NCBI GenBank assembly: GCA_048884965.1
Contig: JBHLQH010000003.1
Location: 129,809 to 193,808 of the forward strand
Direction: 5' to 3'
Length of the DNA stretch: 64,000 nucleotides
Source: Candidatus Thorarchaeota archaeon
GTDB lineage: Archaea > Asgardarchaeota > Thorarchaeia > Thorarchaeales > Thorarchaeaceae
Shown here: piece after piece, positions 3,127 to 64,000 of the stretch
Numbering within the stretch: position 1 is the first letter of the stretch
Layout: every line of letters begins with the position of its first letter
Notes under the pieces: model-generated
Seen by the model: the letters and a program-made list of their open reading frames with translations, nothing else
The model's database searches: none
What the model was told of the DNA's origin: nothing
Made by a program: the position numbers and the translations under genes

Positions 3127-5901
3127 ATGTGGCATTTTCCAGATGAGGTAAAGTTTCGATTCAGTTGGAGACCCTATCAGGCAAGGGTGCTTTCTGAACT
3201 TGAGGGGCATATGGGTGACAAGAGATTACATGTTGTTGCAGCTCCCGCATCAGGAAAGACCGTGCTTGGTCTTGAGGTTGTTCGGCGTCTTGATGGACCC
3301 ACGCTAGTGCTGGCACCAACACTTGCAATTCGTGATCAATGGGTGCAGCGTCTAGAGGAGCTCTTCCTTCCCTCAGGTAGTAAGACCCCAGATTGGGTTT
3401 CGTTCGACCTCGCTCGACCTGGTTTCTTTACTGTGAGTACCTATCAGATGCTTCATGCGGCGATGAAACGCGAAGAGTATGTTGCAGAACCTGAGGAAGA
3501 TGAGGGACTCGAGGATGAAGATGACTTCATTCCTGATCAGTCTACGGATATCGATATTGAAGAGGAAGAAGAGCAGGCTCTCGATATTGAGGAGAAGGAA
3601 GAGCGTGAGGCATATAATTGGCTCAATCAGAAGAGGACTGACTATCGGAACGCACCAATGCCCGAGCTGGCACCTCTTCTCGATCAAATAGGCGTCAAGA
3701 CCGTTGTGCTTGATGAAGCTCACCATCTGAGGTCAAGCTGGTGGAAAAGCCTGACGACACTTATCAAGGATCTTGGATCTATTCGCTTACTTGCTCTTAC
3801 TGCAACACCTCCTTATGATGTTCCGCCTGCAGAATGGGACCGATACATAGAACTCTGTGGTCCTGTAGATGCTGAGATCTCAGTTCCGGAGCTTGTCAAG
3901 GTCAAGAATCTATGTCCTCATCAGGATCTTGTAGCTTTTTCAAGTCCTTCATTCTCCGAAGGTGCCGAGATTGCCAAGTACAGAGAGGATGTGATTCAGT
4001 TCGTTTCGGACTTACAAATGAATGATACCTTCATCGAATTAATTATGTCGCATGAGTGGCTAAGGCAACCAGAATCAAATCTCGAAGATATACTGAATGA
4101 GCCGGACTTGTTTACCAGTATGTTGGTATTCCTGAATCAAGTAGGAAAAATTCTTCCTCTCCCTGCATTGAGCCTAGTTACCGATAGCATCGCTGAACTC
4201 CCTCAGTTTTCTTTTGAATGGCTGGAAGTACTACTCACCGGTCTCTTCTATCCTCGAAGTGGAAAACGACCCAAGTTTGAGCCAGAAGTCGAAGAAGTCA
4301 GGACTAAATTACGACAGATTGGGGCAATAGAACGCCGAAAAGTCTTCCTCAGGAATCCAACCTTTATCGAGAAGATTCTCAAGCGAAGTGTTTCAAAGAT
4401 GGATAGTATCGTGGATATCGCCAATGTGGAATTTGGGGCATACGGTGATAGGCTACGGATGGTGATTCTTGCAGATTATATTAGAAAACGGTATCTTCCT
4501 TCTGAAAAGAATCCAGAGCCAGAACTTGACAACACTGGGGTAGTTCCGATATTCGAGAGGCTAAGAAGAACCAATACTGCCAGTGTCAAAATCGGGGTTC
4601 TAACTGGCTCTCTTATCATCATTCCTACAGAATCTGAAACACTGTTCAGGGATCTTGCTTTTGAATCTGGAATATCAGGGAACGATATCGATCTGAGCCT
4701 ATTACAGCATGATGAAGATTATATGATGGTCAAGGTCCTCTCCTCAGATAAGCACAAGATGGTTCGAGTAGTCACTGATTTCTTCTCCGCTGGAGGATTG
4801 AACATCCTTATTGGGACGAAATCATTGCTTGGTGAAGGGTGGGATGCCCCCTCTATTAACTCGCTTGTGATTTCGAGCGTTGTAGGGTCTTTCATGCTTT
4901 CGAACCAAATGAGGGGAAGAGCTATCAGAATCCAGCCCGGTAATCCGGGAAAGACTGCAAATATATGGCATCTAGTGTGTGTGGAAGCCAATAGCTCGAC
5001 ACCTGGCGAAGATTACAATACTTTGGTTCGTCGATTCAGGGCATTTGTAGGAGTATCACAAGCTGAGCCCCTTATTGAGAATGGTCTGTCCCGATTATTA
5101 GTTGGCTCAGCGCCTTACTCAGCTGAAGAGATTTGGGAGATTAATGAGCGCATGTTTGATCGTTCCATGCAGCGCGATAAGATGAAGGAGTCATGGGAAA
5201 TCGCACTTGGTCAAGACCAAGAGATTCGACTTACAGAGGATGTGCAATTCTCAGAATCTCAGATTCCGACATTTCTCTCATCCTACGAATTTCCATTCTG
5301 GTTTCCTGGCTGTTTTGGTTTTTCCGGTCTATTTCTGATTGGATTCATGTTGGCTCCTATATCCCTATATTCCCTCCTTTTTCCTCTCATTCCCTTACTC
5401 TTTCTTATACCCTCCCTAGCCAGGCACTATCGACAAAGTCCCCTAAAACGTGCCCTAGGATATGTCGCATATGGTTTAGTAGCATCTCTCATCATGTGTA
5501 GATATATTCGAACGCCATCTCGTGATTTACAAATCAATATCGATGAGGGACTTGATGCGAAAATCTACTGCCATCTAAAAGGTGCTAACAGAAGAGAGCA
5601 ATCAATATTCCTACAGGCACTTCAAGAGATTTTCAATCCAATTGACGATCCAAGATACTTGGTCTGTAACACTCGTCCAAACCCCAAACTGATAGCAGAT
5701 TACTATCCGGTTCCGAAAATTCTAGGAACCAAGAAAGAGCATGCTACGGAATTTACCTCTTTTTGGAAGCGAAGCAATTTCACTCCGAATCTTATCTTTA
5801 CACGAAATAGTAAGGGCCGTCTTCAGCTGCTTAAGGCACGAACCAAGTCTAGAGCGCGACTAAGAGGCATGAAATCAGAACGGGTTACAAGATGGAAGTA
5901 G
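3127..5901 (+). CDS. Superfamily II (DEAH) helicase with acidic insert and C-terminal hydrophobic segment
   Basis: Q-motif WRPYQ, Walker A AAPASGKT, DEAH, TATPP, GEGWD, QMRGRAIR. Confidence 0.88.
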   Translation: MWHFPDEVKFRFSWRPYQARVLSELEGHMGDKRLHVVAAPASGKTVLGLEVVRRLDGPTLVLAPTLAIRDQWVQRLEELFLPSGSKTPDWVSFDLARPGFFTVSTYQMLHAAMKREEYVAEPEEDEGLEDEDDFIPDQSTDIDIEEEEEQALDIEEKEEREAYNWLNQKRTDYRNAPMPELAPLLDQIGVKTVVLDEAHHLRSSWWKSLTTLIKDLGSIRLLALTATPPYDVPPAEWDRYIELCGPVDAEISVPELVKVKNLCPHQDLVAFSSPSFSEGAEIAKYREDVIQFVSDLQMNDTFIELIMSHEWLRQPESNLEDILNEPDLFTSMLVFLNQVGKILPLPALSLVTDSIAELPQFSFEWLEVLLTGLFYPRSGKRPKFEPEVEEVRTKLRQIGAIERRKVFLRNPTFIEKILKRSVSKMDSIVDIANVEFGAYGDRLRMVILADYIRKRYLPSEKNPEPELDNTGVVPIFERLRRTNTASVKIGVLTGSLIIIPTESETLFRDLAFESGISGNDIDLSLLQHDEDYMMVKVLSSDKHKMVRVVTDFFSAGGLNILIGTKSLLGEGWDAPSINSLVISSVVGSFMLSNQMRGRAIRIQPGNPGKTANIWHLVCVEANSSTPGEDYNTLVRRFRAFVGVSQAEPLIENGLSRLLVGSAPYSAEEIWEINERMFDRSMQRDKMKESWEIALGQDQEIRLTEDVQFSESQIPTFLSSYEFPFWFPGCFGFSGLFLIGFMLAPISLYSLLFPLIPLLFLIPSLARHYRQSPLKRALGYVAYGLVASLIMCRYIRTPSRDLQINIDEGLDAKIYCHLKGANRREQSIFLQALQEIFNPIDDPRYLVCNTRPNPKLIADYYPVPKILGTKKEHATEFTSFWKRSNFTPNLIFTRNSKGRLQLLKARTKSRARLRGMKSERVTRWK

Positions 5902-6009: not shown

Positions 6010-7257
6010 ATGGCTATCACATCGCTAATTCCTATTGTTGCCCTAGGAATAACCTTCATTCTCATTATTGTCAGGAAAGTTGGAGGATATAATATCAAGA
6101 TATGGCAGGCTATGCTCCTTGGTGCGATACTTGTCCTGGTCACTGGACAAATCTTCATCGTAGATGCAATTCTTTCAATAAACCTCGATGTCATGCTCTT
6201 TCTCTTTGGGATGTTCGTTATCGGAAGTGCAATGGAAAAGAGTGGCTATCTATCAAGAATATCCGCGTTCTTCTTTGGTCGTGCAAGGAATGTAGATCAG
6301 CTCATCCTCATGTTGCTTTTTGTAATGGGTATGCTCTCCGCGCTTCTCATGAATGACACGCTTGCCATTATAGGCACCCCTATCGTACTCGGATTTGCCA
6401 AGCGCTATCGCATCTCTACAAAGCTGCTGCTCCTTACACTTGCATTCGCTGTCACCACAGGAAGTGTTCTTAGCCCTATTGGAAACCCGCAAAACCTGCT
6501 AGTAGCAACCCAGGGAGGATTTGAGAATCCATTCATCACCTTCATGCAATACCTCTTCCTTCCTACCATGATATGCATCTTGATTGCATACACATTTCTT
6601 AGGGTGTTCTATCGCAAGGAATTCAAAACTTTGGAGATAGTAGATGATTCCAGTACCACTCACGATAATGGACTAACCAGACTCTCCAAGATCTCATTCG
6701 TACTGGTCTTCATTCTAATCATAGCGAAGATTGCGCTCATCTTCATCCTACCTGATTTTGACTTCAGACTGACCTATATTGCTCTTATCGCATGTCTTCC
6801 AGTTCTGATTGGTAGTAGTCGACGGGTTGAGATTGTACATGACATTGATTGGGAAACCCTTGTTTTCTTCGCGTCTATGTTCATACTCATGACCAGTGTA
6901 TGGAATTCAGGTGTGATTCAGTTCCTGCTTGAGGATTATACCTCATTGATCTCCTCGGTCCCAGTAATTCTGTTCTTGAGTGTGACCTTGAGCCAAGTAC
7001 TCTCCAATGTTCCTCTTGTGGCACTATACCTCCCCCTATTAACGGAGGCCTCGGCAAGTATTGCCTCCTATGTTGCACTTGCAGCAGGCAGCACAATTGC
7101 AGGAAACATGTTCATCCTCGGAGCCGCAAGCAATGTCATCATCATTCAGAATGCAGAGAGAAATGGAGAAACCATATCTTTCTGGGAATTCGCTAGAATT
7201 GGGGTCCCTCTTACAATTGTGCAGCTTCTAATCTATGTCCTGTTTCTTGGGATATAG
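6010..7257 (+). CDS. ArsB/NhaD/SLC13-type anion permease
   Basis: SALLMNDT, SPIGNPQN, SNVP and GAASNVII motifs of the ion transporter superfamily. Confidence 0.88.
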   Translation: MAITSLIPIVALGITFILIIVRKVGGYNIKIWQAMLLGAILVLVTGQIFIVDAILSINLDVMLFLFGMFVIGSAMEKSGYLSRISAFFFGRARNVDQLILMLLFVMGMLSALLMNDTLAIIGTPIVLGFAKRYRISTKLLLLTLAFAVTTGSVLSPIGNPQNLLVATQGGFENPFITFMQYLFLPTMICILIAYTFLRVFYRKEFKTLEIVDDSSTTHDNGLTRLSKISFVLVFILIIAKIALIFILPDFDFRLTYIALIACLPVLIGSSRRVEIVHDIDWETLVFFASMFILMTSVWNSGVIQFLLEDYTSLISSVPVILFLSVTLSQVLSNVPLVALYLPLLTEASASIASYVALAAGSTIAGNMFILGAASNVIIIQNAERNGETISFWEFARIGVPLTIVQLLIYVLFLGI

Positions 7258-57888: not shown

Positions 57889-59397
57889 ATGCTATCTGAT
57901 TCAGATGTCAATCTTGTCAACCTAATACGCGTCACAGGATTCCGAGAGGAGTTCATCAAAGAAGCTATGGCAAATAGAGGTGACGAGTGGAATCAGATCT
58001 CAGCATCGGTCACTGAGCATAAACGGATTCTGGATTTGGGCGAGAAGCATACTCGGCAAAAGGCCATTCAGGACCCTGTCCATGGTGCAATTCTCCTTGA
58101 ACCCTGGGAGCTGGACGTCATATCTGGATGGGAGATGCTCAGATTGCGTTATGTCAAGCAACTCGGACCTGCGCATATAGTCTATCCTGGGGCAACGCAT
58201 ACCCGATTTGAGCATTGCATAGGAACGAACTTTCTTGCTCAGAAATGCATTCGTGTCGTCAACTATTGTGATGATATGGAAGACCCGCGTTTCGTCCCTC
58301 TTTCGCAGCTCCTTGATGACTACCATCAGAAGGTATTCAGAGCTGTTGCATTGCTCCATGATGTAGGGCACCCTCCTACATCTCACACCATTGAGTTCGC
58401 TCTGGAGAATTGGGCTCATCTATCTCATACTGATCTCGGTGCATTCCTCATCTTGCACAGTGATCTCTCAGATGTCTTAGAGGCGAGTGGAATCGATCCC
58501 ACCTCTGTAGTCGATGTGCTAAAGCGACGCTCGAAGGACCCAATCATGAAGCTCCTTTCAGAATTCATTGACAGTCCTCTAGATATTGACAAAACAGACT
58601 ATCTCATTCGAGACGCTCATTTTAGTGGTGTCGAACTTGGCATCTTCCCTGCAGAGCGTGTCCTACTCACGAATCGTGTCGTTCGAGATAGAAAAGGCGA
58701 CTACCATCGTGCATTCATGTTGAAGGCTCTCCACTCATTGGAAGCACTGATACTCAGCAGGTCTTGGATGTTCTCTGACCTCTACCTGCATCATGCTGTT
58801 CGCGTGGCTGAAGCATTGACATCCAAAGCGACATATTTCCGATTGAAGGAAGAAGCCTTCTCTAGAAACGAGTGTATAGGCTTCTTCACCCGCATGACGG
58901 ATGGTGACCTCTTCAGATGGCTCGAGAAATCTGAGATACCCTTTGTGAAAGAATACGCAGCGAGGATACGATATAGGCGACTCTTCAAGATAGTTACTGC
59001 CAAGCCTATCGCTCTATTTACTGAAGATGCTAAGACACGGCTTCTTCATTTCATGAAGGATATCGAATCCCTTGTTGAGGCAGAGCTACAGGTAATGGAA
59101 GAGCCTGGGCAGGTCATCATTGACGTTGTGGACCCTATCCTTGGAGAGAACTTCCTTAGTCATATACCGATTCTCATTGGTGGTGAATCAGGATTCGACT
59201 TGGTGAAACTCAGCAACACTGAGGAAGGAGGCCCTTTGATGGAAGCACTCTCACAACAGCGCAAAACCATTCCAGCTGTACGAGTGTATGCAGATCCTAG
59301 GAACGCTGTGGCGGTAAGAAAGCGCTTTGATGAAATCTTCCCTGCTCAGGACAAACCCCGACGTCGAGAAGACGATTATGAATTCTCGGAATACTAG
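57889..59397 (+). CDS. HD-domain phosphohydrolase, SAMHD1/COG1078-like
   Basis: DPVHG, RLRYVKQLG, YPGATHTRFEH, LLHDVGH..SH..E, DIDKTDYLIRD, LYLH. Confidence 0.92.
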   Translation: MLSDSDVNLVNLIRVTGFREEFIKEAMANRGDEWNQISASVTEHKRILDLGEKHTRQKAIQDPVHGAILLEPWELDVISGWEMLRLRYVKQLGPAHIVYPGATHTRFEHCIGTNFLAQKCIRVVNYCDDMEDPRFVPLSQLLDDYHQKVFRAVALLHDVGHPPTSHTIEFALENWAHLSHTDLGAFLILHSDLSDVLEASGIDPTSVVDVLKRRSKDPIMKLLSEFIDSPLDIDKTDYLIRDAHFSGVELGIFPAERVLLTNRVVRDRKGDYHRAFMLKALHSLEALILSRSWMFSDLYLHHAVRVAEALTSKATYFRLKEEAFSRNECIGFFTRMTDGDLFRWLEKSEIPFVKEYAARIRYRRLFKIVTAKPIALFTEDAKTRLLHFMKDIESLVEAELQVMEEPGQVIIDVVDPILGENFLSHIPILIGGESGFDLVKLSNTEEGGPLMEALSQQRKTIPAVRVYADPRNAVAVRKRFDEIFPAQDKPRRREDDYEFSEY

Positions 59398-60077
59398 GTG
59401 AGATGAACTACCATTTCGAGAACTTTGCGAAATCCCATCTCTATATAGATCACACCATAGAAGGCCTCAACTAAGGTGCCTTTGATATGCTCCATCTCAG
59501 ATTTTGTAGGCGTTGGAGGATCAAAGTGAATCCTGTTCTCGTAAAGACTCCACTCATCACACTTCTTAGAGAGATGCTCATTACTGACAAGTCCTGATCT
59601 TCTCTCTGTCAGATATCCCACATCTGATGCACGGGGTTTCCATATGTGATGTAGAATTGCCATATCTATAGTTGCATCTCCCAAGAGAGCAAGCATCTTT
59701 GCGGTTTCACTCAGAGCGACCATATCTGGGAGCGATTGACACTCTTCAAGTACAGCTTCTACATCGCAATAATGGGTTTCAAGCTCAAGAAAGAGATTCT
59801 TCGTGCTAGGTTGAAAGAGTGAAACTGTGAAGAGTCCCTTCTCGTTGAGGTCAAAGTCGAATATCTCCTCCAGCCGAGGTGCGAGTACCTCTTCCGCATA
59901 GGTCACTCGTTGAATTATATAGGCCAATTGATCGAGCCACTTCCCCATCTTTGTTCTTGTGCGTGTATTCTTTACAGGGACTTCTCCAAGGTCCTGCTCG
60001 ACAAGATTCTTTATGCCTACTAGATTCTCCTTCAGATAGAGTCTGTGCCAATCGAGAACAGAATCACCAAGTGTCAT
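59394..60077 (-). CDS. Ribonuclease III family nuclease domain protein without dsRBD (Mini-III-like)
   Basis: LALLGDATI, RSGLVSNEHL, GTLVEAFYGVIYIEMG; ATG at 60077 after GAGGTGA. Confidence 0.82.
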   Translation of the reverse strand: MTLGDSVLDWHRLYLKENLVGIKNLVEQDLGEVPVKNTRTRTKMGKWLDQLAYIIQRVTYAEEVLAPRLEEIFDFDLNEKGLFTVSLFQPSTKNLFLELETHYCDVEAVLEECQSLPDMVALSETAKMLALLGDATIDMAILHHIWKPRASDVGYLTERRSGLVSNEHLSKKCDEWSLYENRIHFDPPTPTKSEMEHIKGTLVEAFYGVIYIEMGFRKVLEMVVHLT

Positions 60078-60906
60078 GATTATCACCTCGCGGAGAGTAT
60101 TGTACGACCTTCGCTCGTTCGTCCTCATAGTTATCGACATGGATTGCAGTGATAGAGTACTCCTCTGCTAGCCGTATCATACCCAGAATCGTAAGTGGAG
60201 TGCCTATGGACAGGTCGATAAGGACGTTATGGGTCGGGATGACCTTCACTACTTCATTACGAATGAATTCATACACAGCCTGTAGATTTCCATGCTGTGT
60301 GTCCTCATGCTCCGTTGTAATTTCAACAGGGATATCGATCCACTCCGTTTCTATGTCCATTTGCCCACGTGATTCGCCTGTCATGAACCTATCCAATGAC
60401 CGGAGGGTCTGACGTTTCCATACTCGTGCTTCTGTGAATAGGAGTAGTTTTCGAGGTTTGAACTGCTTGCTTCTTTTCAACCAAATCGCAAAAGGTCGTT
60501 GATCATCAGGCTGTCTGATAGATGCGACATATGCCAAGGGTCGTGACACCTCCATGAGACCCATCTCCTGCAAAGCTCTTCTTACAGGATGGTATGCCCG
60601 TAGACAAAGCTCGAACACTCGCTCTCGGGACTCCCGTCGGCTCCGTATGATCCCTAGCTTCTCGAGGTGCGATGTGTTATGATAGAGCTTGGGATCAGTC
60701 ACTACAACCTTCTTCTCTTTTGCAGTCTTCTTTCCCTTCTGATCGATTAGAGTCGCAGCCATATCCTTTCGGATGCTTTCACGGAGCTCAGTACCTGTCT
60801 TTGGTCCACCTTCCAATTGATCCAAGATGATTCTTCTGGCGCGAACGCTCTCAATCTCGTTCTTGATGATATCATCAGCAGTCTGGGACAACATAGGCAT
60901 CACCAT
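60064..60906 (-). CDS. N-terminal ArsR-like wHTH fused to C-terminal CARF-like Rossmann domain
   Basis: RRIILDQL..GP.T..EL...LYHNTSHLEKLGII; then LAYVASI / PRKLLLFT / EWIDI / VLIDLSIGT-helix / AIHV strand pattern. Confidence 0.7.
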   Translation of the reverse strand: MVMPMLSQTADDIIKNEIESVRARRIILDQLEGGPKTGTELRESIRKDMAATLIDQKGKKTAKEKKVVVTDPKLYHNTSHLEKLGIIRSRRESRERVFELCLRAYHPVRRALQEMGLMEVSRPLAYVASIRQPDDQRPFAIWLKRSKQFKPRKLLLFTEARVWKRQTLRSLDRFMTGESRGQMDIETEWIDIPVEITTEHEDTQHGNLQAVYEFIRNEVVKVIPTHNVLIDLSIGTPLTILGMIRLAEEYSITAIHVDNYEDERAKVVQYSPRGDNHDTW

Positions 60907-61233: not shown

Positions 61234-62373
61234 ATGGCTGAAGACGAGTTTCTTGGCGCGAAGCCCATCGTTATTGATAACGGTACTGGGCTTAGCAAGA
61301 ATGGATATGCCGGCGAGGATCAGCCCCGATCCGTCTGGCCCACTTTGATTGGCTATCCACGATATGAATCAATCATGACAGATGTTGACCACTACACCCG
61401 CGATTACTACATCGGTGAGGAAGCAATCAACCTCCGTGGTGTACTACGCCTGGTCTATCCAATCACCCATGGTGTTGTAGAGGACTGGGACGCTATCGAG
61501 AAGATATGGAGCTATACATTCTATAACGACTTGAAAGTTGACCCAAGTGAGAACCCAGTGTTGCTCACTGAAGCACCCTTCAACCCCAGAGAGAATAGAG
61601 AACGAATGGCAAGTGTGATGTTCGACAACTTCGGTGTACCCGCAGTCTATGTCGCCACTCAGGCCGTGCTATCATTGTACGCATCAGGTAGGACCACTGG
61701 TCTGGTCATCGACTCCGGTGACGGTGTTACTCACATCGTACCTGTGTACGAAGGTTTCTCAATCAACCACGCGATTCGAAGAATTGACCTTGCAGGACGT
61801 GACATCACCGAGTATCTGCGCAGGCTTCTCAGACAGAGAGGTTACTCATTCGTGAGCGGTGCAGAGAAGGAGATCGTCCGTGATGTGAAGGAGAAGCTCT
61901 GTTACGTTGCTCTTGATCCTGAGAGAGAGAGGACCGTTGCAGACAAGGCTGGTGTTGACAAGCCCTACATGCTACCTGACGGTGAGGTAATCACTGTTGG
62001 TGCAGAGCGCTTCCAGGCACCCGAGCTGTTCTTCAACCCAAGCGCCATTGGTCTAGATACAATGCCTCTCGATGAGCACATTGTCGAGTCAATCAAGGCT
62101 TGTGACGTCGACTTGCGACGTGACCTATACGCTAACATCGTCCTTTCAGGCGGTTCAACCATGTTCCCAGGACTCAAGGAGCGACTCCACAAGGAGATCA
62201 CCGAACTAGTCCCAGAGAACATCGAGGTCCGAATCATCGCTCCACCCGAGAGACAGTACTCTGTCTGGATCGGCGGAAGCATCCTTGCTTCCCTGAAGAC
62301 GTTCCAGAAGATGTGGGTTTCAAGGAAGGAGTTCGAGGAACAGGGACCCGAAGTCATACACCGCTGTATCTAA
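61234..62373 (+). CDS. Asgard actin (conserved lokiactin-type)
   Basis: [79 protein letters not shown]. Confidence 0.98.
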
Positions 62374-62430
62374 GCGTACTAGAAGTTGGAGGAGAGCTAG
62401 CGAAGCTCTCCTTCTTTCTCTCCCCTTTTT
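62329..62430 (+). repeat. Direct repeat copy 1: actin 3' end plus stem-loop
   Basis: gagttcgaggaacagggacccgaagtcatacaccgctgtatctaagcgtactag (62329-62382), then hairpin and CT tract. Confidence 0.92.
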
Positions 62431-62547
62431 CAAACACTTCTGAAAAAATCTACCATTTTCTTATTATCATATATATGCCAGAGTTTGTCGATAATACTAA
62501 TTAGGGCTCAAGTGCCAAGGATGCACCAAGGAGGCATGCATTCTATT

Positions 62548-63114
62548 ATGAGCATCCTAAGATATGAAACACAAGAGGGTAAACAAGAAGAGTTTCAAAT
62601 TGAGTCCAATGCAACTACTGTACGACTCATCGATATGAGGATATCTAGAATTGATCTTTCGCCGCTTGAGTCACATCAGGACCTTCAAGAATTGAATTTA
62701 AGTATGAATAAACTCGAAACTATTGATCTTTCTCCACTGAAATCTTGTACCAGTATAGAGAAACTCAATTTACAGAATAATAGTTTCAAAACTGTTGACC
62801 TTTCCCACTTTAGTGGATTTACAAGTTTCAAATATCTAGATTTAACAGGCAATAAAATCGAAGTATTCGACATTACTCCACTCGTTTCTTGTCCAAAATT
62901 GGAATTTTTTGCATTAGATCCTTTTACTCGCTTCAGAGGTCCAATTGACCCTCGGATTATGCATGTTATGAGAGCATCATCACCGGTTGACAAAGAATCA
63001 GTAGCATTCGCAAAAACATTGATGTCCTCTGTTCAGGCAAGCATACGCCAGATTGAGAGATCAAGTGTACGGCAAATGCGTGAAAAGGAAGAAGAAGAAA
63101 AACGGAAAAAGTGA
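62548..63114 (+). CDS. Leucine-rich repeat protein
   Basis: IDLSPL..H..LQELNLS.N.L..IDLSPL..C..IEKLNL..N repeats; visibly AT-rich. Confidence 0.88.
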   Translation: MSILRYETQEGKQEEFQIESNATTVRLIDMRISRIDLSPLESHQDLQELNLSMNKLETIDLSPLKSCTSIEKLNLQNNSFKTVDLSHFSGFTSFKYLDLTGNKIEVFDITPLVSCPKLEFFALDPFTRFRGPIDPRIMHVMRASSPVDKESVAFAKTLMSSVQASIRQIERSSVRQMREKEEEEKRKK

Positions 63115-63122
63115 ATTGCAGA

Positions 63123-63223
63123 GAGTTCGAAGAGCAGGGACCCGAAGTCATCCACCGCTGTATCTACAGCGTACTAGTTTCCGAAGGAGTGGGAGCGTTC
63201 CCCTCCTTCTTGCTCTCCCTTTT
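63123..63223 (+). repeat. Direct repeat copy 2: orphan actin 3' end plus stem-loop
   Basis: gagttcgaagagcagggacccgaagtcatccaccgctgtatctacagcgtactag (63123-63177), then hairpin and CT tract. Confidence 0.92.
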
Positions 63224-63277
63224 CTGGCATCCAATCAAATAGGATAGAAGAAGGTACCAGTATCTCATCATCTACTC

Positions 63278-63889
63278 TCATTTGATTTTTGTGCGTCCTG
63301 TTCCAACAAAATAACATACACCAAGTAAACCGAAGAGTATACCTACTCCAATGGTAATAGGAATATCCATAATGGTTGATGGTGGTCTTATGATTAGCAT
63401 ACCGATGATACCGACAATCATAAAACCTACAACATATAGGATTGGTTCTCTCCATATACGAAGAGTTCTGCGTAGAGAACTTTCCGGCTTACTTTCACCT
63501 GCACTCTCCTTTGAGGAATCTTCGACCTGTATCCTTTCAATTGGTCTTCTCCTCAGTAGTAATAATGATAGGATTATACCAACTCCCGTGAGAGTAACGT
63601 CAATGATTAGGGGTATTAGAGACACAGAGCCCCCTAGAATCACTATTGTGTAGAAATAGCCTACAAGAGAGAGTATTGATGCTAGTAGAATAGTAAACGC
63701 CTCTGAACTGCTATATTTCTGTCGCGCAATTAGAATCAATGTTACGAATAAGCTAGCACCAACCACTATTATGCTAACGAAAATATGGATTCCATGAGGT
63801 ACGAGACCAAATAATGGTAGTACTATTGCAGTCAATAAGCACATCAATGGTACTAGAATAACTAACAAAATTTCAAGTCGATTCATCAT
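63278..63889 (-). CDS. Hypothetical membrane protein (about 6 TM)
   Basis: Hydrophobic AT-rich ORF; GAGGAG upstream. Confidence 0.7.
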   Translation of the reverse strand: MMNRLEILLVILVPLMCLLTAIVLPLFGLVPHGIHIFVSIIVVGASLFVTLILIARQKYSSSEAFTILLASILSLVGYFYTIVILGGSVSLIPLIIDVTLTGVGIILSLLLLRRRPIERIQVEDSSKESAGESKPESSLRRTLRIWREPILYVVGFMIVGIIGMLIIRPPSTIMDIPITIGVGILFGLLGVCYFVGTGRTKIK

Positions 63890-64000
63890 TTAACACGCTC
63901 CTCTTACGAGTGACTCCCCAAGCAAGTCACGAAGTCATCCATATGCTTTCTATCCGATATTTAAGTTGGCTGGTGACTCTCGAAATTGACGCATAAACGA

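Follow-up and report, generated by a model that had tools for sequence, protein, structure and literature searches.

At tRNA and tmRNA genes, integrative elements bring in a replacement 3' end and the displaced partial copy of the gene comes to lie at the far junction, which yields arrays of partial ends with the intact gene at one end. The orphan 3' modules downstream of bacterial rhs and cdiA toxin genes are not known to need a dedicated recombinase: a new module enters by recombination in a conserved stretch of the main gene, and the old end stays downstream together with a short part of that stretch and with a variable left boundary. In fungal mitochondrial mobile ORFs (Allomyces atp6), a foreign in-frame C-terminal segment replaces the resident segment, which stays downstream as a pseudo-tail. 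Family 1 casposons target aEF-2. Casposons of this family lie at a conserved gene end and have a 13-bp target duplication (PMC8464041), and tandem integrative elements at tRNA and tmRNA gene 3' ends are treated in Williams (2002), as cited in PMC8813620. In homology-facilitated illegitimate recombination of transformable bacteria (de Vries and Wackernagel, 2002), as far as it is summarised in PMC6382021, a one-sided homologous anchor is combined with a join at short microhomology, and foreign DNA enters beside a conserved gene.

Here we describe the actin gene of Thorarchaeota as a landing pad for accessory genes which lacks a recognisable integrase. The locus was found in a stretch of 64,000 nucleotides from a Candidatus Thorarchaeota archaeon (the window; its genome is G000) and consists of the following features:

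61234 to 62373, plus strand: actin gene (379 amino acids; Pfam Actin, 5.2e-134), the anchor of the array
62329 to 62373, plus strand: coding part of tail copy 1, the working last 14 codons and TAA, continuous with the actin reading frame
62388 to 62430, plus strand: copy 1 terminator, with an 11-bp hairpin (62388-62414), a CT tract and a T5 run (62426-62430)
62431 to 63122, plus strand: cargo cassette, made up of an LRR gene (Pfam LRR_8, LRR_4) and, ahead of it, an AT-rich leader that contains a TATA-like stretch
63123 to 63168, plus strand: coding remnant of tail copy 2, with 14 intact codons and a stop broken by an inserted C (63167); the former end of actin, now displaced
63183 to 63225, plus strand: copy 2 terminator, with a hairpin (63183-63209) of 'type A', a CT tract and a T4 run
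63278 to 63889, minus strand: gene of a 203-aa membrane protein, low in G+C (38.2%)

Of 24 other family genomes that were scored, 23 have a single actin with 93-99% protein identity to this one. The upstream neighbours of the gene encode a wHTH protein that matches no Pfam family, an RNase III-like protein and an HD hydrolase. The coding parts of copy 1 (62329-62372) and copy 2 (63123-63166) are identical at 41 of 44 positions and encode the same 14-residue actin C-terminus. The three differences (GAG/GAA, GAA/GAG and ATA/ATC) are all synonymous and at third positions, and the stop of copy 2 is disrupted by one additional C, TAA becoming TAC A. The 3' UTR is repeated as well, up to the end of the T-run (62373-62428 and 63168-63223, 73% identity). 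The full unit of about 100 nt (62329-62430 and 63123-63225) comprises the last 14 actin codons, the stop, the terminator hairpin and the T-run; it gave E = 2.5e-20 in a whole-genome search, in which just two copies were present. An 11-bp hairpin is predicted in each copy (-20.2 kcal/mol in copy 1, -19.4 kcal/mol in copy 2), and the differences between the upper stems are compensating changes. The direct repeats, the three synonymous changes, the inserted C and the related hairpins had been described in an earlier, sequence-only reading of this DNA, and all were found again, in a repeat that is longer than described.

The LRR gene starts at ATG 62521, or at 62536, which is preceded by GGAGG, and its stop lies at 63112-63114. 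The encoded protein matches LRR_8 and LRR_4 (3e-12 each). With a G+C content of 36.7%, the DNA between the copies lies at the 0.9th percentile among 600-nt windows of this genome (44.1% overall), and actin is at the 99th percentile; an AT-rich LRR gene between the copies had been reported before, and the composition profile suggested as a check bears this out. A protein search of 86 family genomes gave no donor or second copy of the LRR cassette, only a large LRR family (best identity 45%). Because copy 2, with its terminator, starts 8 nt past the LRR stop, the LRR transcript is probably now terminated by it. The gene of the 203-aa membrane protein may be further cargo; no such gene was found behind actin in the relatives fetched. 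The assembled contig stops at position 64000, 775 nt past copy 2. The actin flank that is conserved in the genus (TetR and neighbours) was found at the end of a separate contig (C16), with partial similarity in another (C89), and no end overlaps that would extend the window contig into either were found.

The sequence-only reading had named a chimeric assembly of two strains as the finding that would overturn it. Such an origin would fit the 7.2% contamination of the MAG, the several related Thorarchaeota in the samples and the contig end shortly after copy 2. Against it, Logan contigs from runs X1 (62241-63463) and X2 (62214-63463) each run from the actin end through both copies, with the LRR gene between them, into the downstream gene, a contig from run X3 spans 62446-63691, and read depth is the same in the cargo as in the flanks. 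The three runs belong to a single study, possibly the source of the MAG. A graph assembler could not have joined through the copies, since these have no exact word of more than 17 nt in common, and the same architecture, decayed copies included, lies inside long contigs of many other assemblies (e.g., a 471-kb contig). The structure is bridged by independent contigs from two samples, and an assembly chimera is therefore extremely unlikely. The excised circles or empty site that had been proposed as a check did not turn up in the Logan contigs, nor did a donor or a contig with a copy 1/copy 2 hybrid tail. Two joints (62414 to 63123 in X2, 62422 to 63126 in X3) were each seen in a single contig, with likeness set at 90% and shorter sides of only 39 and 33 nt; they may derive from relatives and are left out of the evidence.

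Arrays were defined as at least two co-oriented tails on one contig, and a pattern scan of 86 Thorarchaeaceae genomes, one per species, was performed. At least 27 of these, belonging to 7 of the 16 genera, have 2-6 co-oriented actin tails directly behind actin, with unrelated cargo genes between them. The LRR cassette of the window is one such unit. Single contigs hold up to four tail copies, and G005 has at least five over two joined contigs. This agrees with the earlier proposal of actin as a hotspot of integration, comparable to tRNA att sites, and the comparison with relatives it called for shows other cargo behind the actin tails. The tails are confined to the region behind actin and never dispersed. 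No arrays were found within 6 kb of actin in 20 more distant loci, including those of Jord-, Frey-, Hel-, Borr-, Sigyn- and Heimdallarchaeota. Cassette units measure 0.3-4.6 kb. The repeats include the last 10-22 actin codons; each starts within a narrow band, some 33-66 nt ahead of the stop, at a point that varies between cassettes, and on the right side they end sharply with the T-run. Cargo genes occur in both orientations (28 plus, 41 minus), and toxin-antitoxin cargo (HepT/MNT, DUF433/DUF5615) was seen in several genera. Recent transfer of shared toxin-antitoxin cassettes between genera was considered and rejected: HepT/MNT of G003 and G013 have just 70.7% DNA identity, below that of actin. 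Where compared, a tail and the cargo to its right recur as a pair.

Differences between 42 distal tails and the working tail of the same genome fall on codon positions 1/2/3 with counts of 41/35/137. In G013, over 21 codons, copy 3 has 13 synonymous and one non-synonymous change, copy 2 has 8 and none, and copy 4 has 11 and none. Such a third-position pattern is beyond what neutral decay of a local duplicate can produce. In 18 of 41 distal tails, the UTR hairpin resembles the functional tail of some other species (60 bits or more) much better than that of its own. In the window, copy 2 has the same hairpin, letter for letter, as the terminator of the working actin gene in G005 and G006, which belong to the same genus; copy 2 scores 86 bits against their working tail and 29 bits against that of its own genome. 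The copy 2 sequence also occurs with an intact TAA, lacking the extra C, in contigs of co-occurring relatives from the same samples. The copy 1 hairpin is of 'type D', which is unusual for this genus and also present in copy 4 of G005 and copy 1 of G071:C267. The third-position bias together with the matches to working tails of other species supports the view that the distal tails are displaced, formerly functional actin ends. For the window, the sequence-only reading had suggested the same from two tails, and the G005/G006 match, the intact stop in relatives and the family-wide coding constraint all speak for it. The actin 3' end appears to have been swapped between lineages. In G046, an actin paralogue that lies behind actin is 43% identical to it overall and shares its last 19 residues, an arrangement that shows recombination inside the tail. 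Gene conversion among the tails of an array (G056, G013) blurs their histories.

In the comparisons made, new cassettes enter adjacent to actin. G074 has an additional 404-nt cassette on the actin side of a nitroreductase cassette that it shares with G057, and in G057 this nitroreductase cassette in turn lies on the actin side of a 179-aa cassette common to G057, G076 and G065. The displaced tail retained the older UTR type in two of three comparisons; one comparison (the G076 hairpin type) is at odds with simple displacement. A different event separates G101 from G024 and G098: cargo was exchanged from the exact right end of tail 1 to a point inside a DUF433 gene, and no new tail was added. 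This replacement, a single case, has one homologous and one arbitrary junction, a pattern that may be that of homology-facilitated illegitimate recombination. That process is described as a replacement, unlike the tail duplication at actin, and no archaeal description of it was found.

The actin arrays resemble the elements at tRNA and tmRNA genes in that direct repeats of the gene's 3' end flank the insert and the gene is restored, and in having a right boundary at the end of the functional unit and a variable left boundary. They differ from them in a protein-coding target, the last codons plus terminator, and in small units without an integrase. With rhs and cdiA they have in common the downstream, formerly functional partial 3' ends with variable left boundaries. 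There, a variable functional toxin tip is exchanged, whereas at actin the exchanged coding part is invariant in protein sequence and it is the unrelated genes behind the terminator that vary. As in Allomyces atp6, a C-terminal coding segment is replaced in frame and the old tail stays downstream, but the Allomyces-type elements encode a homing endonuclease and none was found at actin. Integrons likewise have a cassette array behind a fixed site, with the newest cassette proximal, a hairpin in the repeated site and diverse cargo including toxin-antitoxin pairs. Unlike integrons, the actin arrays have no IntI, attI or attC, both orientations occur among their cassettes, a promoter-like leader is present in the single cassette that was read closely, and what is repeated is part of a host gene with an ordinary terminator hairpin. 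Tn7 at attTn7 (glmS) and family 1 casposons also insert, and stack, where a highly conserved essential gene ends and insertion is safe; they do so with dedicated transposases and short target duplications, and the gene tail is not replaced. The actin repeats of about 100 nt contrast with the 13-15 bp of casposons, no Cas1 (PF01867) was found in the genome of the window, and the actin/LRR region has no long inverted repeats. The arrays are also unlike the hairpin-guided transposition of IS200/IS605, as no HUH Y1 transposase (PF01797) was matched in five array-bearing genomes.

The absence of an integrase from the window, remarked on before, extends to the whole assembly. Neither the genome of the window (95.7% complete) nor G005 contains a match for tyrosine recombinases, serine recombinases, Cas1, HUH transposases or reverse transcriptases (PF00589, PF00239, PF01867, PF01797, PF00078). 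PF00589 has no match in G003 either, and 57 of the 86 genomes are without any. The 30 cargo proteins that were scanned include no recombinase, and no reverse transcriptase was found in five array-bearing genomes. The landing-pad behaviour is not unique to actin, because the gene of the beta subunit of 2-oxoacid:ferredoxin oxidoreductase has the same tail-plus-terminator duplication, with a different tail sequence, in G000, G006 and G065. Repeats of a terminator only were found on contigs C45 and C17. The hairpin was also considered as a dispersed mobile repeat and rejected as such, being an ordinary terminator style of this genome (19 sites, 3 in the control). Elsewhere in the genome of the window, on contig C9, a classical tRNA-end repeat set was observed.

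The earlier reading had left homology-directed and site-specific integration side by side; the evidence leans towards the former without settling the matter. We put at somewhat better than even the chance that incoming DNA recombines in the conserved actin 3' end, displaces the resident tail and is joined illegitimately at its other end. The incoming DNA would carry its own actin tail (10-22 codons, stop, terminator hairpin and T-run) followed by cargo, and would recombine with the resident gene through the highly conserved tail sequence. Its tail would become the new working end of actin, and the resident tail would be shifted to the far side of the cargo, where it would decay or act as a cargo terminator. 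Repeated events would give arrays in which the newest cassette adjoins actin. For this it would suffice that the host's homologous recombination, with actin as its anchor, is combined with one illegitimate join of the microhomology type, or alternatively that a circularised fragment integrates by a single crossover. A linear one-sided event in its simple form yields replacement and not duplication, and therefore an extra step is needed, either a circular donor or an unequal exchange. The process would resemble homology-facilitated illegitimate recombination and not the work of a dedicated integrase. Actin is likely favoured for its DNA identity across genera (84-89%), its solo transcription and the dispensable DNA behind it. 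From ORF maps of the loci examined, the gene appears to be transcribed alone, with no co-oriented gene directly behind it. The same uniform identity means that a crossover within the window actin was not placeable by sliding identity to species representatives.

It is possible, if rather unlikely, that the arrays are instead built by an integron-like site-specific system, with a recombinase or nuclease encoded elsewhere or on transient elements, the tail and hairpin as attachment site, and circular one-tail cassettes as substrate. The cassette-like arrays with the newest unit beside the anchor gene would suit such a system, as would a hairpin whose structure is kept while its sequence varies, left boundaries within a 30-nt band opposite a sharp right boundary, and toxin-antitoxin cargo that recurs in several genera as in integrons. 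The only other gene tested is moreover hit much less often than actin, which could reflect specific targeting of actin, and the narrow left-boundary band could mark a defined cleavage site or, equally, the instability of longer repeats. The enzyme searches in G000, G005 and the 86 genomes argue against it, as do cargo in both orientations, the promoter-like leader of the window cassette, left boundaries that differ among cassettes, the identical scar type at an unrelated gene with another tail sequence, and the ordinary terminator style of the hairpin. A further step, to which we give a slightly lower and still doubtful standing, would be a dedicated cassette-capture system without a known integrase, which would use the actin 3' end as attachment site like integron attI; its trigger would perhaps be a site-specific break near codon 359/360, the position of a BHB mini-intron in some relatives. 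If real, such a system would represent recombination machinery of a new class, placed at a eukaryote-like gene that is emblematic. Duplication in situ would begin with a replication fork, or with repair synthesis, that halts at the terminator of actin. The template would then be exchanged for foreign or ectopic DNA, and synthesis would come back to the locus further upstream, doubling the tail as a long target-site duplication; the copies would come to differ through later allele replacement. The geometry suits this, as the exit is constant at the T-run and the place of re-entry varies. Such a process would be open to every strong terminator, in line with the oxidoreductase locus and with the terminator-only repeats of C45 and C17, and some arrays (G056, G014) do have identical flanking tails. 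We nevertheless regard it as improbable: most flanking tails differ by many synonymous changes and in hairpin type and match working tails of other species, so that a separate second process is needed, and tails, where compared, recur together with their right-hand cargo. Copying of the 3' part of the actin transcript into DNA, from the BHB splice site to the transcript end, would account for repeats that all end at the T-run, the longest of which start within a few nt of the intron position in relatives. It is very improbable given the lack of a reverse transcriptase in the five array-bearing genomes, tails solely behind actin, cargo in both orientations, and an actin that is intronless in most array genomes.

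Asgard genomes are large and rich in accessory genes, and their route of gene uptake is an open question for models of eukaryote origin. At the actin locus, foreign genes have a concrete point of entry that was used repeatedly, and the record kept there is simple to read: every tail that was displaced is a dated fossil of a former actin allele, and the order of arrival is apparently given by the order of the array. If host recombination suffices, as we favour, conserved genes with dispensable DNA behind them could serve as general archaeal landing pads, as the oxidoreductase locus suggests. Horizontal exchange of the 3' end of an essential cytoskeletal gene would also bear on actin phylogenies.

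A 30-nt BHB intron was predicted in the actin gene of five genomes (G006, G013, G018, G020 and G050), none of which is notable for array size. Its elements follow in the order h, H (CCAG/CTGG), bulge (divided AA, U), 9-bp stem and bulge (divided UG, A), with the outer helix offset by a small internal loop, and it has the 4-bp central helix and the two 3-nt bulges on opposite strands that define a BHB. Excising exactly 30 nt restores QKMW and the reading frame. In the alignment, 95% of cells are paired and four pairs show compensatory change, compared to about 37% pairing in slid controls. To our knowledge, a spliced protein-coding intron has not been reported before from an Asgard archaeon. 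In the literature covered, which is incomplete, neither integration at actin nor an intron within it was found described for these archaea. If spliced, the predicted intron would join the very few known archaeal mRNA introns, such as that of cbf5 in Crenarchaeota (PMC2738675).

We found that the actin gene of the window (Pfam Actin, 5.2e-134) is followed by a second copy of its own 3' end. This 3' end consists of the last 14 codons, the TAA stop, an 11-bp hairpin, a CT tract and a T5 run, here together called the tail.

61234-62373, plus strand: actin gene, ending in the working tail (copy 1, 62329-62430)
63123-63225, plus strand: second tail (copy 2), a repeat of the actin end offset 794 nt downstream

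The coding parts of the two copies are equal at 41 of 44 positions; the three differences are all synonymous third-position changes, and the stop of copy 2 holds one inserted C. Identity between the UTR parts is 73%, and the changes in the hairpin stem of copy 2 compensate each other. A search of the 4.09-Mb assembly of this genome (G000) returned only these two tail copies (E = 2.5e-20). Between them sits an LRR gene with an AT-rich, TATA-like leader. Because its stop lies only 8 nt ahead of copy 2, the displaced terminator probably now serves the LRR gene. The LRR cassette has a G+C content of 36.7% (0.9th percentile of the genome), and actin is at the 99th percentile. The duplication around an inserted AT-rich LRR gene described by the sequence-only reading was thus confirmed.

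The possibility raised there that the second copy is a chimeric assembly of two strains is not borne out. Logan contigs of the sequencing runs X1 and X2, assembled independently, each bridge the actin end, copy 1, the LRR gene, copy 2 and the downstream gene, and a contig of run X3 covers the LRR gene, copy 2 and the downstream gene, with equal depth in cargo and flanks. The three runs belong to a single study, and the source of the MAG may be among them. The longest exact word common to both copies is at most 17 nt. Co-occurring relatives have contigs with the copy-2 sequence in which the inserted C is missing, indicating that copy 2 is a tail type working in close relatives. A gap follows the end of the contig (C3) at 64000 and may hide further cassettes or tails, since TetR and its neighbours, which flank the final actin tail in genomes of the same genus, are found at the end of another contig (C16).

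A degenerate pattern for GPEVIHRCI was scanned over 86 species genomes of Thorarchaeaceae. At least two co-oriented tail matches on one contig were present in 27 genomes from 7 genera, and reversed-pattern controls on the same contigs gave zero matches. In the fetched loci, actin is directly followed by arrays of 2-6 tails at spacings of 0.3-4.6 kb, with four or five tails each in G013, G066 and G085 and at least five, over two joined contigs, in G005. The right boundary of every unit is the terminator T-run, the left boundary falls between about 66 and about 33 nt ahead of the stop, depending on the copy, and a few copies are UTR alone. No such repeat was found within 6 kb of actin at 20 more distant loci, including those of Jord-, Frey-, Hel-, Borr-, Sigyn- and Heimdallarchaeota. 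Displacement arrays are found behind rhs/cdiA genes, and the mechanism favoured below would be akin to these. One contig binned with a genus g6 genome (L085, G071:C267) has the tails and flank that are typical for genus g1, and one junction nearly identical to a G005 junction; mis-binning is the probable reason, with a recent transfer as the alternative.

The cargo between tails consists of unrelated accessory genes in both orientations (28 plus, 41 minus). These encode the toxin-antitoxin pairs HepT/MNT and DUF433/DUF5615, TPR and beta-lactamase-fold proteins, S9 and S15 peptidases, a transglutaminase-like and a deaminase-like protein, a radical-SAM/HD fusion, a methyltransferase, a nitroreductase, a GNAT acetyltransferase, an ArsR regulator and many proteins without family. 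No recombinase was present among the cargo proteins scanned.

When 42 distal tails were compared with the working tail of their own genome, codon positions 1, 2 and 3 showed 41, 35 and 137 differences. Several distal tails encode an intact protein sequence with near-saturated synonymous change, such as G013 copy 3 with 13 synonymous and one non-synonymous change over 21 codons. As a neutrally drifting local duplicate is expected to have many position-1/2 changes, this pattern indicates that distal tails are displaced, once-functional actin ends which diverged under translation in other actin alleles. The hairpin type of 18 of 41 distal tails is far closer to another species' working actin terminator than to their own; copy 2 of the window scores 86 bits to G005 versus 29 bits to its own copy 1. 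The earlier suggestion that both tails were once functional actin alleles therefore stands. Decay tends to rise with distance from actin (G085, G078, G065, G074).

Actin itself is interrupted by a 30-nt insert, containing an in-frame stop and placed immediately ahead of MWVSRK, in G006, G013, G018, G020 and G050, representing five genera.

L087:1890-1919 (G006): 30-nt actin insert
L021:1562-1591, minus strand (G018): 30-nt actin insert

The insert, a putative intron, folds as a bulge-helix-bulge in canonical order: the 4-bp helix is CCAG/CTGG, the two bulges are AA|U and UG|A, and the inner stem has 9 bp. Predicted cleavage after the second bulge nucleotide would remove a segment of exactly 30 nt, which restores QKMW. 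Covariation is seen in the pairs (95% of cells paired, four pairs with compensatory change, about 37% in slid controls). Our literature search turned up no description of an mRNA intron in the actin of Asgard archaea. The insert lies within a few nucleotides of the start of the longest tail repeats. Its scattered distribution is in keeping with actin 3' ends being exchanged horizontally.

In G074 (genus g6), an extra 404-nt unit lies between actin and a nitroreductase cassette common to G074 and G057, and in G057 this nitroreductase cassette lies between actin and a 179-aa cassette that is also present in G076 and G065. Because the extra units sit on the actin side of common cassettes, these comparisons indicate that new units enter adjoining actin, with a new working tail. 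The displaced tail retains the older hairpin type in two of three comparisons, in agreement with the proposal that arriving cargo replaces the actin 3' end. In G101 (genus g4), cargo was swapped from the exact end of tail 1 to inside a DUF433 gene with no new tail, which would represent one homologous and one arbitrary junction.

The lack of an integrase, first noted for the window, holds for the whole G000 genome. PF00589 (Phage_integrase), to which the archaeal chromosome-resolution enzyme XerA belongs, had no match in G000, G005, G003, nor in 57 of the 86 family genomes, and resolvase, Cas1, Y1 transposase and reverse transcriptase had none in G000 or G005. Many of the 57 genomes are more than 90% complete, and archaeal control genomes all match. 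The actin hairpin is of an ordinary terminator style within G000. A second conserved gene of G000, encoding the 2-oxoacid:ferredoxin oxidoreductase beta subunit, bears the same scar: its last 17 codons, with the stop, the hairpin and the T-run, are present twice, on either side of a membrane-protein gene, and this tail is doubled in G006 and G065 as well. In G046, the last 19 residues of an actin paralogue and their coding DNA are identical to the actin tail, which makes the 3' end of the paralogue chimeric and speaks directly for recombination inside the tail.

L201:2361-2451 and 3849-3936 (G000 contig C2): oxidoreductase beta tail copies, the second 1488 nt downstream
Between these copies, minus strand: gene for a 364-aa membrane protein
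L080:3832-4953 (G046): actin paralogue, 373 aa, directly behind actin, 43% identical to actin

Since no known enzyme was found, the hairpin is ordinary, a second gene bears the scar and the G046 tails are identical, we prefer a model in which host recombination is anchored in the conserved 3' end of actin and is combined with one illegitimate join. Such a process would resemble homology-facilitated illegitimate recombination (PMC6382021). The sharp right boundary would be the point where donor-recipient homology stops, repeat length may be capped by instability of long direct repeats, and the duplication step would need a circular donor or unequal exchange. An unknown recombinase acting in trans is a possible alternative to host recombination, as is template switching at the actin terminator.

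Short direct repeats resembling terminator regions surround one or two inserted genes elsewhere in G000 and could represent scars of the tail-duplication type that lack a coding part.

L202:1211-1257 and 3546-3592 (contig C45): direct repeats
1-43 and 2264-2306 (contig C17): direct repeats
Contig C83: three copies

Repeated tRNA 3' ends are a classical mark of integrated elements, and contig C9 of G000 contains three copies of a putative tRNA 3' end with T-arm and CCA (694-743, 1945-1994 and 7050-7094), despite no tyrosine integrase being detected across the assembly.

Divergent from actin lies a wHTH protein gene without Pfam match, together with an RNase III-like gene (59394-60906, minus strand). 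No link of this pair to the tail arrays was found. Among the fetched family loci that extend sufficiently upstream, nearly all keep the wHTH gene in this position; for the RNase III-like gene behind it, the Pfam identification comes from the window only. The pair may regulate actin.
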